Positions 1 to 4,661 of a stretch of 13,140 bases of DNA are shown in pieces. This DNA is from Candidatus Xenobia bacterium (GTDB lineage: Bacteria; Vulcanimicrobiota; Xenobia; Xenobiales; QWHO01), in the NCBI GenBank assembly GCA_045863235.1, contig BTUM01000133.1, positions 1 to 13,140 on the forward strand, given 5' to 3'. The notes beneath the pieces are model-generated. The model had not been told where the DNA came from. It made no database searches and saw only the letters and a program-made list of their open reading frames with translations. The position numbers and the translations under genes are program-made. Position 1 is the stretch's first letter, and every line of letters begins with the position of its first letter.

Positions 1-62
1 CCCGGAAGGGCGGCTTGGTTGCCCGGAAGGGCGGCTTGGTTGCCCGGAAGGGCGGTTGGTTG
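1..62. repeat. Tandem 21-bp REP-like repeat (CCCGGAAGGGCGGCTTGGTTG), 3 visible copies, probably continuing off the left edge
   Basis: Copies at 1-21, 22-42 and 43-62 (third has a 1-nt deletion). GGGCGGC-TTG-GTTGCCC forms an imperfect 7-bp hairpin across unit junctions. Confidence 0.9.
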
Positions 63-67
63 CCCTG

Positions 68-94
68 AGGGTCGTCTGGGATCGCCGACCCTAC
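68..94 (-). repeat. GTAG-type REP-like palindrome
   Basis: Minus strand reads GTAGGGTCGGCGATCCCAGACGACCCT: a 5' GTAG tetranucleotide followed by a stem (AGGGTCG 68-74 / CGACCCT 86-92), the layout of GTAG-family REPs. Confidence 0.5.
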
Positions 95-102
95 TGAGTA
101 AA

Positions 103-495
103 TCGAACGTACGCTCGTCCCCCGCGGGGACGAAACTCCTGCCGAACACCCTCGCGCCAGCAGGTCACAATGCCTGCCTCAGAGCCAGTTGGGGACTCGC
201 CCTCGAACGTGTTGGGACTCGCCCTCGAACGTATGCTCGTCCCCCGCGGGGACGAAAATCCTGCCGAACACCCTCACGCCAGCAGGTCACCAAGCACGCC
301 TCAGAGCCAGCGCGCCTGGGAGCGAGCTTGGATCCCGGGCTCGAACGTACGCTCGTCCCCCGCGGGGACGAAACTCCTGCCGAACACCCTCACGCCAGCA
401 GGTCACAATGCCTGCCTCAGAGCCAAATTGGGCCTCGCCCTCGAACGTACGCTCGTCCCCCGTGGGGACGAAAGTCCTGCCGAACACCCTCACGC
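103..495. repeat. Array of four ~85-bp structured direct repeats with short variable linkers
   Basis: Units start at 103, 225, 341 and 441 (periods 122, 116, 100); the fourth is truncated after 55 bp. Core TCGAACGTACGCTCGTCCCCCGCGGGGACGAAACTCCTGCCGAACACCCTCACGC contains the hairpin TCGTCCCC-N3-GGGGACGA. Confidence 0.95.
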
Positions 496-572
496 GATTT
501 CAACCTTTTTTCAGCCTCCAGGGGTAATCTGACCCAGACATCGGGCCAGGGCCCGATGCGTTGCTTTCTCTA

Positions 573-612
573 CCCGTGGCCGGGAACGGTCGACGGGTGT
601 TCGGCGTTTTTT
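573..612 (+). promoter_or_regulatory. Conserved GNRA-capped hairpin followed by a T6 tract (terminator/attenuator-like) in the leader of 71-aa gene copy A
   Basis: CCCGT-GGCCG-[GGAA]-CGGTC-G-ACGGG (573-597; 10 bp with one bulge) and TTTTTT at 607-612. The hairpin is identical in copy B. Confidence 0.45.
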
Positions 613-655
613 CAGGGCAAGCCAGCATAATCAGGTCATCGGAGGTGCGAACCAG

Positions 656-871
656 ATGACCAACCAGACGGAAAACTTCTACCAGGTGCTCAGCTCAGTG
701 TTCGGAGGCTTCAGCCAGAAGCGCCACGACCGCTCCCAGCGCCAGGCCGTCGTCAGCTCGCGCTCGCTTCCCGAGGCCGGCGATGTGCCCGTTGATCGGG
801 TCACCTGGTCCGCCGGTCTGTTTCAGGCCATCTCCGATGACCTGGTCTCGGTCTGGAAGCTGGCCGCCTGA
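656..871 (+). CDS. Small hypothetical protein (71 aa), copy A, C-terminus -KLAA
   Basis: SD GGAGGT at 641-646, 9 nt before the ATG. GC3-rich codons. 13 synonymous vs 3 non-synonymous codon differences from its paralog at 2618-2833. Confidence 0.85.
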   Translation: MTNQTENFYQVLSSVFGGFSQKRHDRSQRQAVVSSRSLPEAGDVPVDRVTWSAGLFQAISDDLVSVWKLAA

Positions 872-937
872 TCGACCGGCCTCGCGGGCCCGACCCTCGC
901 CCGAACATCAGCGACTTCGGGCCTGGAGCGCCACCTT

Positions 938-1915
938 CTACGCCACCCTCCTGCGTGAGCGCCGCTTCCTGGCCACCGCCTGCAACTCTTCTTGCCGCAC
1001 CGTCACGCTGCGTTCACCCAGCTGGACCGGGCTGCGGACTGTCTGCAAGTAATCGAGCAGAACAGCCATGACCTCCTTGAAGAGCTCGATCTCCCCCGCG
1101 TCGGGTAGCGCGCTCTCCTCGAGCCGGGAGGTGCTGCAAAGCATCGGAGCCAGCAACGTGCCGTCGTCATCCTCGCAAAGGGGCAGATTGAGCGTGTCGA
1201 TCTCACGGGCCACGGCCAGCCCATAGTCTTCCGCCGTTGCGTAAGTCAATGCCAGACACGGCAACCCGGACAGGGAGCCCCCGCGCGCGACCTGGCGCAC
1301 GCCGCGAAGGTCGCGATAGATCCCCAATCCTCGCTCCACTCCCTCTGAGCCCAGCACCGAGCAGTAGAGAGGCTCCGGGGTCAAACCTTCGAGCACCAGC
1401 AGCGTTCTCGTCGAGATCCACTCCCAGGCCGACAACTCCCAGAACTCCCCGGCCAGCTCGAACATCTCCAACACCAGGTCAGGGCCCACCCCTTCCTGGT
1501 CGAGGTAGCCATCGGCGAGGCTGGCCAGCGCTCCCTCCATCTCGGCCAGGATGCCCTGGATCGAGGAGGGGTCGGACATCACCGCCACCTGCGTGTGCAG
1601 AGGTGCCAGGGCTGTTTTCAGGTGGCGAGCCACGGCCGGGTTGGCCACCAGTACACGCTGAGGACGACCGGCCAGCGAAGGCGGCGCCGGAGCCAGCATC
1701 GCCTGAATCAGGGACTCGAACAGCGCCTCAGCTTCGGAGAGAGCGCTGGGACTGGCGCTCAAGCTGCGCAACTGTCCTTCCTGGTCGGCCCACAGAGTCA
1801 GGCTCATCTCGCCTTCCACCGAGTAAGAGATCTCGCGTCGACCTCCGGCGAAAACGCTGCCCTTCAGGAGTGGGAGCTTGAGGATCTTCTTGAGGATAGA
1901 ACGACTGAGCTGCAT
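938..1915 (-). CDS. DUF6930/DUF7309-like hypothetical protein (325 aa)
   Basis: ATG at 1915 with SD GGAGG at 1929-1925. Motifs AMLAPAPPSLAGRPQRVLV and FWELSAWEWI...LYCSVLGSEGVERGLGIYR resemble, from recall, the cyanobacterial-type DUF6930 + DUF7309 proteins. Confidence 0.7.
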   Translation of the reverse strand: MQLSRSILKKILKLPLLKGSVFAGGRREISYSVEGEMSLTLWADQEGQLRSLSASPSALSEAEALFESLIQAMLAPAPPSLAGRPQRVLVANPAVARHLKTALAPLHTQVAVMSDPSSIQGILAEMEGALASLADGYLDQEGVGPDLVLEMFELAGEFWELSAWEWISTRTLLVLEGLTPEPLYCSVLGSEGVERGLGIYRDLRGVRQVARGGSLSGLPCLALTYATAEDYGLAVAREIDTLNLPLCEDDDGTLLAPMLCSTSRLEESALPDAGEIELFKEVMAVLLDYLQTVRSPVQLGERSVTVRQEELQAVARKRRSRRRVA

Positions 1916-1923
1916 CGACAAAC

Positions 1924-1947
1924 GCCTCCCATCAAATGACAGGAGGC
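1924..1947 (-). promoter_or_regulatory. Anti-Shine-Dalgarno hairpin over the RBS of the 325-aa gene
   Basis: mRNA GCCUCCUGUC-AUUU-GAUGGGAGGC forms a 10-bp stem with two G-U pairs that covers GGAGG. Confidence 0.55.
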
Positions 1948-1973
1948 TCTTCGACGCCGGTCTTGAAATTCAT

Positions 1974-2387
1974 TCAAAGCGAGCGCATAGACATTTGCTG
2001 GCGGTAGCGGACCCCGAAATAGCCTCCCACCAGGGCAGGCACCGCCAGGGCCGCCGGCCCGACGAAGACTGCCGCCACCGAGCAGGAGACGTTCAGAGCC
2101 GCCCCCGCCAGCATCGCGGGGGAGACCCCGGTCGGGGCCGATCTCGGGCCTTCCATCAGCAGCCCCAACGGCACCGCTCCGACCAGAGGAATGGCCGAGA
2201 GGGTGGAACCCACCACCGCCGCTCGGAGCAAGCGCCACGGGGAGGGAGGCCTGGCTCTGGGAGCGGAGTTTCCCCAGCCCCGGCACTCAAAGGATTCCTC
2301 GGGGGCCTTGTTGACGGACCGAACTCTCCCTCTGGCCTGGCGCTGGGCGAAGTTGAGAGTCCGCAGGAACGAGATTGCGTTGCTCAT
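1974..2387 (-). CDS. Hypothetical membrane protein (137 aa), possibly leaderless
   Basis: Basic N-terminus followed by 2-3 Gly/Ala-rich hydrophobic segments. -10-like TATCTT at 2399-2394 lies 6 nt before the ATG; no SD. Confidence 0.6.
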   Translation of the reverse strand: MSNAISFLRTLNFAQRQARGRVRSVNKAPEESFECRGWGNSAPRARPPSPWRLLRAAVVGSTLSAIPLVGAVPLGLLMEGPRSAPTGVSPAMLAGAALNVSCSVAAVFVGPAALAVPALVGGYFGVRYRQQMSMRSL

Positions 2388-2399
2388 GCCGACAAGATA

Positions 2400-2416
2400 G
2401 CTCGAACAGTTCGAGC
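2400..2416. promoter_or_regulatory. Perfect 8-1-8 palindrome, putative operator
   Basis: GCTCGAAC-A-GTTCGAGC immediately upstream of the TATCTT -10 box, in the divergent intergenic region. Confidence 0.45.
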
Positions 2417-2534
2417 CGATCCAAAATCACAGACTGCTTGTGTTAACAATGTCAGCGATTTCAGCCTTCTTTCAGGCTCCACGGCTAATCTGGCAAAGAC
2501 GCACGGGCCAGGGCCCGAAGCGCCGCTTTCTCTA

Positions 2535-2574
2535 CCCGTGGCCGGGAACGGTCGACGGGCCTTCGGCATTTTTT
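2535..2574 (+). promoter_or_regulatory. Conserved GNRA-capped hairpin + T6 tract in the leader of 71-aa gene copy B
   Basis: Same hairpin as 573-597 at 2535-2559; TTTTTT at 2569-2574. Confidence 0.45.
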
Positions 2575-2617
2575 CAGGGCACTCGAGCATAATCAGGTCA
2601 TCGGAGGTGCGAACCAG

Positions 2618-2833
2618 ATGACCAACCAGACGGAGAACTTCTACCAGGTGCTCAGCTCGGTGTTCGGCGGTTTCAGCCAGAAGCGCCACGACCGCTCCCA
2701 GCGCCAGGCCGTCATCAGCTCGCGCTCGCTGCCCGAAGCCGGCGAGGGTCCGGTCGACCGGGTCACCTGGTCCGCGGGCCTGTTCCAGGCCATCTCCGAC
2801 GACCTGGTCTCGGTCTGGAAGCTGGCCGCCTGA
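2618..2833 (+). CDS. Small hypothetical protein (71 aa), copy B, C-terminus -KLAA
   Basis: SD GGAGGT at 2603-2608. 68/71 aa identical to 656-871, with mostly synonymous nucleotide changes. Confidence 0.85.
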   Translation: MTNQTENFYQVLSSVFGGFSQKRHDRSQRQAVISSRSLPEAGEGPVDRVTWSAGLFQAISDDLVSVWKLAA

Positions 2834-2940
2834 GCTTCGCATCGGGCAATGTGCTCGAAATGCGGCGAGCGAGCATTCTTGGGTCTCTTCAGCCAGACAT
2901 CCAGAAGGTCCAAACCTCAGGACACAGAACGGACGGACCT

Positions 2941-3702
2941 ATGACAAAGATGAGTTCTGGCCGCTTCTGCTGGCACGAGTTGCTGACCACCGACCCGGCG
3001 AAATCCCTGACCTTTCTCGAGGCCTTGCTGGGCGTCAAGGGGAAGGGATCGCAGCACGCTCCCGACGCGTACACCGAGCTCTATGCCGCAGAGAGCCCCT
3101 TCGGCGGCCTGATGGCCACGCCCGACCCCGCCATTCCCTCATGCTGGCTGGGCTACATCCTGGTCGAGGATCTCGCCCGCGATACCGAGCGGGCCCGGGA
3201 GCTGGGAGCCGAGGTCCACATGGCCAACCAGGAGATCCCCAAGGTGGGACGCTTCTCGATGCTGAGAGACCCTCAGGGAGCGGTCTTCTACCTGTTCCAG
3301 AGCCAGGACGAGATGCCCGCAGGGGAAGTGGCGCCCGGAACCGTATGCTGGAGCGAGCTCCACAGCCCCGACCTGGAGGGCTCGACCGCATTCTACTCGC
3401 AGCTGCTGGGGTGGAAGCAGAAGACACTCCCCTTGCCGGGCTTCCAGTACACGATGTTCGAGCAGGGGGGTAAGGACGTGGCCGGCATGATGGCGGCCCA
3501 GAGCGGCACCCCCCCCTTCTGGCTGCACTACTTTCTGGTGCAGAACACCGACCAGACCTGTGAGAAAGCGCTCGAGCTGGGAGCCCGGGTCATGGCGCCC
3601 CCCAGCGACGTCCCCGACATGGGGCGCATGGCGGTGCTGGCCGATCCGACCGGGGCTGTCTTTGCCCTCTGGGCCCCGGTCACGGCGGGGGTCTCTCAGT
3701 GA
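2941..3702 (+). CDS. VOC family (glyoxalase/bleomycin resistance) two-domain protein, Rv0577/CFP32-like
   Basis: Two tandem VOC modules: GRFCWHELLTTDP...GRFSMLRDPQGAVF and GTVCWSELHSPDL...GRMAVLADPTGAVFALW. Start is ATG 2941 or 2950. Confidence 0.9.
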   Translation: MTKMSSGRFCWHELLTTDPAKSLTFLEALLGVKGKGSQHAPDAYTELYAAESPFGGLMATPDPAIPSCWLGYILVEDLARDTERARELGAEVHMANQEIPKVGRFSMLRDPQGAVFYLFQSQDEMPAGEVAPGTVCWSELHSPDLEGSTAFYSQLLGWKQKTLPLPGFQYTMFEQGGKDVAGMMAAQSGTPPFWLHYFLVQNTDQTCEKALELGARVMAPPSDVPDMGRMAVLADPTGAVFALWAPVTAGVSQ

Positions 3703-3881
3703 AGGGTTAGCACCCCGGCCGCGATGAGGACCAGAGAGAGCGCCACGAAAAAGAGCCTGGCGCCGGTGTGCCCGAGCAGGGAAACGACCGGTCGGGTTCT
3801 GCGGTGTCGCCAGAGCCAGGGGCTGGGACTGAGAGCCCCCAGCAAACTCGAAACCCCGGCCAGGATCATCAGCCAGCTCAT
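3696..3881 (-). CDS. Imm17-like small membrane (immunity-type) protein, ~61 aa
   Basis: LAGVSSLLGAL..PWLWRHRRTR.VVSLLGHTGARLFFVALSLVLIAAG: two TM helices around a W/basic loop and a GxxGAR motif, matching my recollection of Imm17. The start could be 3905 (TTG), 3890, 3881 or 3869. Confidence 0.55.
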   Translation of the reverse strand: MSWLMILAGVSSLLGALSPSPWLWRHRRTRPVVSLLGHTGARLFFVALSLVLIAAGVLTLH

Positions 3882-3927
3882 CAGTTGCACCAGCAATGAC
3901 TTCAAGCCGGCTCGCGCCTGACCTCCC

Positions 3928-4548
3928 TTGATAGACCTCAAGAAGAAGTCCGAGGAGATCGTGCTGCGCGCGGGTGGCATCGTGAACCCGGACCTGCCAG
4001 AGCTCAGCCCTCACCGCGAGCTCCGCTCGCAAGAAGCCATCCTGGGCCGAATGCTGGCTCTCTATGCGATGGTGGGACTGATCTACGTGGTCAGCGAGCC
4101 CATCATCAAGTGGCTCGAGGCCAACGACCTGATGATCTTCGTTTCCCCGGAAGAGCGGCGACTGCTCGCTTCCGATGTCACCTCGCAGGAAACCCATGTC
4201 TTGGAGTGGTCGATCGAATCGATCTGGGCCTTTGCGTGGATGCTGAGCCTGGTGAACGAGCTGCCCTTTACCTGGCGAGCAGGCGAGGCGATCCCCGAGG
4301 GGTTCCCCAGCATCCTCGAAGGAGAAAGCTGCGCGGCACTGCGCCAGAGAGCGCACCTGCGTCCCCGAGAGGAGATCGTAGCCCAGCTCGACCTTTACTA
4401 CCGGCTCGGCTGGTGGACGCGAGACCGGATGCAGAACTTCGCCTACGTCGAGCACGTCAACTACGATGCGGTGATGGAGCGCCTCAAGGCACTGGACTGG
4501 GCGCTCAGCCTCGAGGACTGGGACGAGGTCGACGTGCGCAACCGGTGA
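3928..4548 (+). CDS. DUF4272 domain-containing protein (206 aa)
   Basis: Characteristic WSIESIWAFAWML, LRPREEI...DLYYRLGW and VMERLKALDWAL...DWDEV motifs. The TTG start is uncertain. Confidence 0.8.
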   Translation: MIDLKKKSEEIVLRAGGIVNPDLPELSPHRELRSQEAILGRMLALYAMVGLIYVVSEPIIKWLEANDLMIFVSPEERRLLASDVTSQETHVLEWSIESIWAFAWMLSLVNELPFTWRAGEAIPEGFPSILEGESCAALRQRAHLRPREEIVAQLDLYYRLGWWTRDRMQNFAYVEHVNYDAVMERLKALDWALSLEDWDEVDVRNR

Positions 4549-4556
4549 TCAAGCAC

Positions 4557-4586
4557 AGAAGCCCGCCGTAGCGGGCTTCTCGTTTT
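4557..4586. terminator. Intrinsic terminator-like hairpin between the convergent DUF4272 gene and tRNA-Ala
   Basis: Perfect 10-bp stem AGAAGCCCGC-CGTA-GCGGGCTTCT (4557-4580), then CGTTTT on the + strand. Confidence 0.75.
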
Positions 4587-4661
4587 GGTGGAGGAGAAGG
4601 GATTCGAACCCTCGACCTTTGCATTGCGAACGCAACGCTCTCCCAGCTGAGCTACTCCCCC
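4586..4661 (-). tRNA. tRNA-Ala (anticodon CGC)
   Basis: GGGGGAGTAGCTCAGCTGGGAGAGCGTTGCGTTCGCAATGCAAAGGTCGAGGGTTCGAATCCCTTCTCCTCCACCA: 76 nt, G3-U70 alanine identity pair, A73, encoded CCA, TTCGAA T-loop, anticodon loop TT-CGC-AA. Confidence 0.98.

Follow-up and report, generated by a model that had tools for sequence, protein, structure and literature searches.

Why would a bacterium keep two nearly identical copies of a gene for a 71-residue protein of no recognised family, each behind the same stretch of upstream DNA? The question is raised by a contig of a Candidatus Xenobia bacterium (phylum Vulcanimicrobiota; GenBank BTUM01000133.1), the entire 13-kb length of which, 13,140 nucleotides (nt), is referred to here as the window; the host genome (G000) comprises 8.36 Mb and is 97.6% complete. 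A reading of the DNA letters alone (the sequence-only reading) had proposed a real small protein under purifying selection, duplicated together with a 160-nt leader as a self-contained regulatory or toxin-antitoxin-like module. Of this proposal the protein is supported and the self-contained module is not: the upstream DNA consists of two predicted promoters of a genome-wide class, which make the gene one member of a large regulon.

The gene pair and its predicted tandem promoters

Features of the two copies, with coordinates in the window, strand and description, are as follows (PWM, position weight matrix).

656..871, + strand: 71-aa gene, copy 1, encoding a helix (residues 3-16), a disordered linker (20-43), the motif D-x-V-x-W-S (47-52) and an amphipathic helix (53-70)
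2618..2833, + strand: 71-aa gene, copy 2, by sequence comparison
641..646, + strand: Shine-Dalgarno sequence GGAGGT of copy 1, from the sequence
2603..2608, + strand: Shine-Dalgarno sequence GGAGGT of copy 2, from the sequence
497..530, + strand: predicted distal promoter of copy 1; repeat 498-503 / 509-514 (11-bp period), 10-nt spacer, -10 hexamer 525-530; PWM 37.1 bits
598..631, + strand: predicted proximal promoter of copy 1; degenerate first half-site, TTTCAG 610-615, 10-nt spacer, -10 hexamer 626-631; PWM 24.5 bits
2458..2491, + strand: predicted distal promoter of copy 2; PWM 37.7 bits
2560..2593, + strand: predicted proximal promoter of copy 2; PWM 27.1 bits
539..599, + strand: structured segment between the promoters of copy 1, with hairpins at 539-558 and ~571-599; 5' untranslated region of the distal transcript or a short RNA
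2535..2559, + strand: conserved hairpin ahead of the proximal box of copy 2

Codon-by-codon comparison of 656-871 with 2618-2833 reproduced the earlier count of 17 nt differences in 16 codons, 13 of them synonymous and 3 non-synonymous (V33I, D43E and V44G), and 15 of the 17 differences were at third codon positions. Purifying selection was confirmed by the ratio of non-synonymous to synonymous rates (NG86 dN/dS = 0.056, Fisher p 2.3e-7), a value within the range of neighbouring genes compared between strains (DUF7309 gene ~0.03, glyoxalase ~0.15). The coding frame is the sole frame of six that is open across all eight copies examined (GC content at third positions 0.85-0.96). As had been reported, the Shine-Dalgarno sequence is present in both copies and their homology stops at the stop codon, 494-871 aligning with 2455-2833 at 342 of 379 positions (90%; BLASTN). 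Open frame and selection together bear out a real small protein in two intact copies, and a paralogue search by tblastn and profile found exactly two in the host genome, where a six-frame translation held no further paralogue with the C-terminal motif.

The protein family that the sequence-only reading did not recognise was not found in Pfam, NCBIfam (all 10 alignment members), PADLOC or PHROGs either. PDB sequences gave nothing significant (best E 0.78) and the ESM Atlas no match. An AlphaFold model placed helices at residues 3-16 and 53-70 and disorder at 20-43 with a mean pLDDT of 60, and Foldseek, run on this model as had been suggested, returned 0 matches. In an alignment of 10 sequences the N-terminal helix and a C-terminal block (D-x-V-x-W-S-x-G-L-F-x-A-I-x-x-D-L) are conserved and the middle is variable; D47, V49, W51 and S52 are invariant in 10/10. 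The protein has a net charge of 0 and two amphipathic helices (C-terminal helix moment 0.39), and a membrane-spanning stretch was not detected (maximum 19-residue Kyte-Doolittle mean 0.89). It is a new, narrow family without assigned function.

The shared upstream homology noted earlier is real, but what had been called a 160-nt leader is mostly promoter DNA, with only ~18 nt from the predicted proximal start to the ATG. Its alignment resolved into two conserved blocks, best described as tandem promoters of the form TTTCAG-N5-TTTCAG-N10-TAnnnT that are predicted to be activator-dependent. Both were kept in 8/8 copies, and in copy 2 of the distant strain G054 the ATG lies exactly 6 nt past the proximal -10, as in a leaderless gene. 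Across six copies, variable columns made up 5/36 of the boxes, 2/27 of the hairpin, 3/24 of the last 24 nt and 37/72 of the remainder. A plain sigma-70 promoter scan gave 0 sites because no -35 is present. Contigs from RNA libraries covered copy 1 in 3/4 runs and were rejected as evidence of transcription or of a start, as they also span adjacent and intergenic sequence and are interrupted wherever the copies are alike.

Between the promoters, 537-610 folded better than shuffled sequences (z -2.8) and the leader of copy 2 did not (z 0.2); no Rfam match at gathering level was obtained for window 1-3200. In G054 a hairpin of different sequence occupies the place of the second hairpin. The inter-promoter segment of that strain is 176-182 nt long with long hairpins (L014:6734-6910 and 2417-2599, - strand), as against ~100 nt in the other strains, and may be a regulatory RNA.

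A genome-wide promoter class and its presumed regulon

The same arrangement recurs across the genome with sharp spacing. Of 566 TYTTTCAG sites, 57 have TAnnnT exactly 10 nt downstream (other spacings at most 5 each), TTTCAG is repeated at period 11 in 56 pairs (other periods at most 3), and unbiased distances from TTCAG to TAnnnT peak at 10 (188) and 21 (119) over 18-47. A weight matrix found 372 sites at 18 bits or more, compared with 7 in the reversed genome; when trained on odd contigs, it gave 161 matches on even contigs and 1 in the control. Period 11 yielded 361 sites and periods 9, 10, 12 and 13 only 31-120; spacer 10 yielded 366 and spacers 7-9 and 11-13 only 56-81. Box promoters have no separate -35, and a sigma-70-type -10 stands at the fixed 10-nt distance. 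Start codons peak 6-7 nt past the -10 (71/122), and 223/378 sites lie at most 10 nt from a start, as for leaderless sigma-70-type transcripts. Box-bearing genes made up ~5% of 800 sampled genes.

When the window sites were excluded from training, the distal sites of copy 2 and copy 1 ranked 1 and 2 of 378 over the core columns; over all columns the distal sites ranked 2 and 3 and the proximal sites 237 and 245. Close tandem pairs are rare, only 4 being found among the ~378 sites, and 2 of these are the leaders described here. Another pair of similar proteins of 64-67 aa without a known family, each behind a strong box, is encoded at G000:C27:16952-17152 and C51:45256-45447.

Conservation of the motif was followed through the class. 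In its strict form, for which control matches were 0, it was found in 21/44 class genomes; by family, in f1 4/4, f3 14/16, f4 2/3, f2 0/19 and f5 0/1. A looser form gave 29-87 matches per genome within the genus of the window and was near control level in f2.

Repeats of 11-bp period read by winged-helix activators are familiar from the PhoB pho box and the Salmonella HilA box, and a hexamer repeat of similar kind serves HilA in switching on the promoters of type III secretion. The box of HilA stands at a greater distance upstream and governs the operons of the apparatus, which in the present genome have no box. The nearest likeness is to streptococcal promoters of CiaR, an OmpR-family regulator, given in the available text of PMC3091779 as TTTAAG-N5-TTTAAG-N10-TATAAT at 15 sites: both have a hexamer direct repeat with a 5-nt spacer, placed 10 nt before a sigma-70-type -10, and a better conserved second half-site. 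The present class differs in its hexamer (TTTCAG), its ~370 sites as against 15, its mostly leaderless genes and its phylum. Literature searches on Vulcanimicrobiota, Xenobia, Eremiobacter and Eudoremicrobi, in which most subscription journals were not covered, found no description of the motif or of the export system considered below, nor of the 71-aa protein or the promoter class, on which the available portions of PMC11484240 and PMC10469934 are silent. The class appears to be a previously undescribed variant of OmpR-type promoters with an unusually large regulon.

Fourteen OmpR-type genes were compared as possible activators. The candidate activator is G000:C58:11243-11878 (- strand), a single-copy OmpR-type regulator with orthologues at 56% identity or more in 17/44 class genomes, mostly motif-rich, and with none in f2 or genus g4. 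The match is imperfect, as g4 shows a weak motif signal and one genome (G090) has the gene and little signal. A second OmpR candidate (the C8/C15 pair) tracked the motif less cleanly. FliA is a less likely reader of the box, being present in 43/44 genomes including all 19/19 of f2, which lack the strict motif; in addition, neither half-site lies at -35 distance.

Products of the regulon were characterised from 292 eligible genes, from which a random draw of 60 was made and its first 40 members were compared with Pfam; gene starts came from a simple in-house caller, and the shares given are approximate. A Pfam match was absent from 30/40, and 9/10 matched members carry it only from residue 76 onward. 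The matches comprised an ADP-dependent kinase, adenosine and cytidine deaminases, an HD plus macro domain, DHH, a DeoC-type aldolase, peptidase C26, a SAM decarboxylase, a glycosyltransferase and DUF7379. A Sec-like N-terminus was predicted for 4% of 221 leaderless regulon products, compared with 29% of 212 and 24% of 1338 controls, and D-x-V-x-L occurred at residues 20-45 in 21% of leaderless products, compared with 5% and 4% of controls. As a group the regulon has the S/P/A/T-rich, acid-poor, non-cleaved N-terminal signal. By analogy with established substrate features, we lean towards regarding the regulon products as type III cargo.

A flagellum-type export cluster with a FliA-like sigma, which is present in 43/44 class genomes, is encoded at G000:C27:60720-79363 and C74:1-2683; the export apparatus of the genome comprises FlhA, FlhB, FliF, FliI, FliJ, FliK, FliM and rod proteins. 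Flagellin, FlgM and MotA had no match in the 97.6% complete genome, and across the class FlhB was found in 43/44 genomes and flagellin in 10/44. Five more proteins correspond to FlhA in its C-terminal part only. Near flhA lie three identical 81-aa genes (G000:C27:55986-57051) of a multi-copy family found in 38/44 class genomes without a family match; the product, a candidate filament subunit, is modelled as a single long helix, a fold that gives no identification.

Distribution and history of the two copies

The 71-aa gene was found in 3/401 phylum genomes, all of the window's genus and with two copies each; two more genomes of the genus (64-65% completeness) were without a match, and a profile search of 40 order genomes returned the same three. 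A fourth strain, L030, likewise with two copies, came from a scan of metagenomes. Protein searches gave 4 and 3 short relatives, partly identical to the genome copies, and beyond the one Vulcanimicrobiota genus only a few unplaced metagenome proteins were related. Two long proteins from the representative search (E 2e-5 and 4e-4) and marginal genome matches (four at E 0.002-0.008, one at E 0.03) were judged to be chance and excluded from the family.

Copy 1 is convergent in 4/4 strains with the following gene, which is given as context and not as a partner.

938..1915, - strand: DUF7309/DUF6930 gene, convergent neighbour of copy 1 in 4/4 strains

For copy 2 the landmark is tRNA-Ala(CGC): the gene is on the near side of this tRNA, and in G054 directly beside its 3' end. 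Both positions are old, since they are already occupied in G054, a distant member of the genus. For the same reason the limits of homology probably mark what selection and gene conversion keep rather than a duplication breakpoint, and leader plus coding sequence, as proposed earlier, was probably not the unit of duplication.

Over the parts that matched, the strongly diverged G054 copies are 62% and 55% identical to the query. Within each of the other three strains the two copies are 89-92% alike in DNA; across these strains there is no site at which every copy 1 differs from every copy 2, and 5 sites are common to both copies of one strain only. Between G000 and G046 the synonymous divergence (dS) of copy 1 is 0.04, compared with 0.23-0.35 for neighbouring genes. 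This pattern points to gene conversion and recombination. In G054 the cysDNC genes are flanked by the two copies; in G046 and L030 they are found upstream of copy 1, an arrangement that recombination between the repeats could have produced. Neighbours in the other strains, named provisionally and in part from their translations, are cysDNC, a chloride-channel-like gene and the DUF7309 gene. A 137-aa open reading frame (ORF) at 1974-2387 was rejected as part of the duplicated unit, as it is not kept in L030.

Other features of the window were recorded alongside. The tRNA-Ala(CGC) is at 4586-4661 (- strand) and in G054 stands next to an integrase gene (L014:863-2095), marking an integration site. 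Between copy 2 and the tRNA lie an Imm17-like gene (3696-3980, - strand; below cut-off) and a DUF4272 gene (3928-4548, + strand). Tandem repeats at the contig ends (1-65, 103-493 and 12964-13140; units of 21, ~116 and 62 bp) each occur on one other contig too.

Readings of the protein's role

Our preferred reading, to which we give a probability of about 40%, is that the 71-aa protein is a strongly co-induced, dosage-kept member of the regulon and probably a small exported or export-linked protein. An OmpR/PhoB-type response regulator would quite likely bind the 11-bp-period TTTCAG repeat and recruit RNA polymerase carrying the housekeeping sigma to TAnnnT 10 nt downstream. The same switch stands ahead of ~370 genes. 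Leaderless orphans and enzymes extended far at the N-terminus make up most of them, Sec signals being absent, and on balance the products would be cargo of a flagellum-derived type III export system. Four promoters over two copies, including the two best-scoring in the genome, would supply a very high dose whenever the regulon is on, and purifying selection and gene conversion would hold the copies alike. At the weakest step, the protein would present a disordered linker bearing a D-x-V-x-(L/W)-S motif, followed by a partner-binding amphipathic helix; D-x-V-x-W-S at 47-52 scored 6.2-8.9 bits under the regulon motif, at the 93rd-98th percentile of background.

Several observations weigh against this reading. 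The motif begins at residue 47 rather than 25-39, some ~15-20 residues later than in the regulon, and has W for L. The first 25-30 residues are unlike regulon N-termini (12th percentile of the regulon, 61st of background), and the first 30 have none of the features of the N-terminal signature. Conversely, of 47 genes bearing that signature only 11 have a box no more than 120 nt away. Boxes are missing from the apparatus operon, are present at only 1/8 copies of the 81-aa family linked to the cluster, and do not strictly co-occur with the apparatus (FlhB 43/44; strict motif 21/44, f2 0/19), f2 having the apparatus and not the strict motif. No autoregulatory box was found upstream of the 11 candidate regulators examined, and the protein is restricted to one genus while the promoter class is wider.

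Some of these points would suit a small cytoplasmic protein induced together with the regulon and unrelated to export, for example a modulator of an enzyme or of stress physiology, the regulon then being a general envelope or lifestyle programme. The atypical N-terminus, the apparatus genes mostly without a box and the presence of ordinary regulon members such as the glycosyltransferase all speak for it; it leaves unexplained the invariant D-x-V-x-W-S resembling the regulon motif and the depletion of Sec signals in the regulon, and we regard it as possible but tentative. More doubtful is a feedback regulator after the manner of FlgM, ExsE or LcrQ/YscM1/YscM2. Being small, disordered and produced from the strongest promoters, the protein would act by binding a chaperone, the FliA-like sigma or the activator, and its removal by export would couple expression to secretion. 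FlgM carries a D-x-V-x-L-S motif. The 71-aa protein is likewise small, probably largely disordered and tied by its promoter to a presumed export programme, and it comes in two copies like YscM1/YscM2; its tandem promoters are top-ranked, its helix-linker-helix anatomy goes with low fold confidence (pLDDT 60), and a FliA-like sigma without any FlgM found lies in the flagellar cluster. Small secreted negative regulators have precedent, with two copies in Y. enterocolitica, as far as the available text of PMC3962397 goes. There is, however, no sequence similarity to FlgM (no match to PF04316 or the NCBIfam FlgM models) or to the other regulators, only one helix follows D-x-V-x-x-S, secretion is only predicted here, and the gene is unlinked to any apparatus or regulator gene and confined to one genus, as against 43/44 class genomes for the FliA-like sigma and three families for the promoter class. 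In its fullest form, which we consider unlikely, several hundred regulon proteins would leave the cell through a flagellin-less, flagellum-derived type III system under one OmpR-type activator, and the 71-aa protein would be the secreted brake on this regulon, a counterpart of FlgM, ExsE or YscM without sequence relation, present in two copies behind the strongest promoters of the genome.

The structured upstream segment (537-610, with its conserved hairpin), the amphipathic C-terminal helix and a locus near the tRNA-Ala integration site recall a type I toxin-antitoxin system, in which a toxic peptide is controlled by a structured leader and an antisense RNA, and which likewise combines a small protein, multiple copies and structured upstream RNA. 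Several points weigh against it: at 71 aa the protein is neutral and has no transmembrane helix, Rfam, PADLOC and Pfam gave no match, window 1-3200 yielded no antisense RNA in the Rfam search, the leader of copy 2 gave no more stable fold than shuffled sequences, the proximal promoter would bypass the structure, no box-type promoter lies on the opposite strand, the promoters are of the activator type of a large regulon, and the chromosomal positions are stable across the genus. We hold this reading to be highly improbable. The self-contained toxin-antitoxin-like module of the sequence-only reading is not supported, and no partner gene is co-duplicated; as regards a type II system, the homology covers a single ORF up to its stop codon. 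A precursor of a ribosomally made modified peptide, with enzymes encoded elsewhere, would fit a short, duplicated gene with conserved ends and a variable middle, and biosynthetic clusters are abundant in a related marine family according to the available text of PMC9259500. It is the least credible reading: the variable part is the middle and not a terminal core, and no maturation enzyme was annotated among the window neighbours, those of the other strains being presumably the cysDNC, chloride-channel-like and DUF7309 genes named above.

For the biology of the group, the larger gain is the promoter class, a sharply defined motif, conserved in three families of the class, that marks ~370 genes of this uncultured lineage. 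With the motif, co-regulated and mostly unknown proteins that resemble type III cargo can be listed in any genome of the group. As the related marine family has been proposed to be predatory in the available text of PMC9259500, such lists would allow the proposal that these relatives are predators to be tested.

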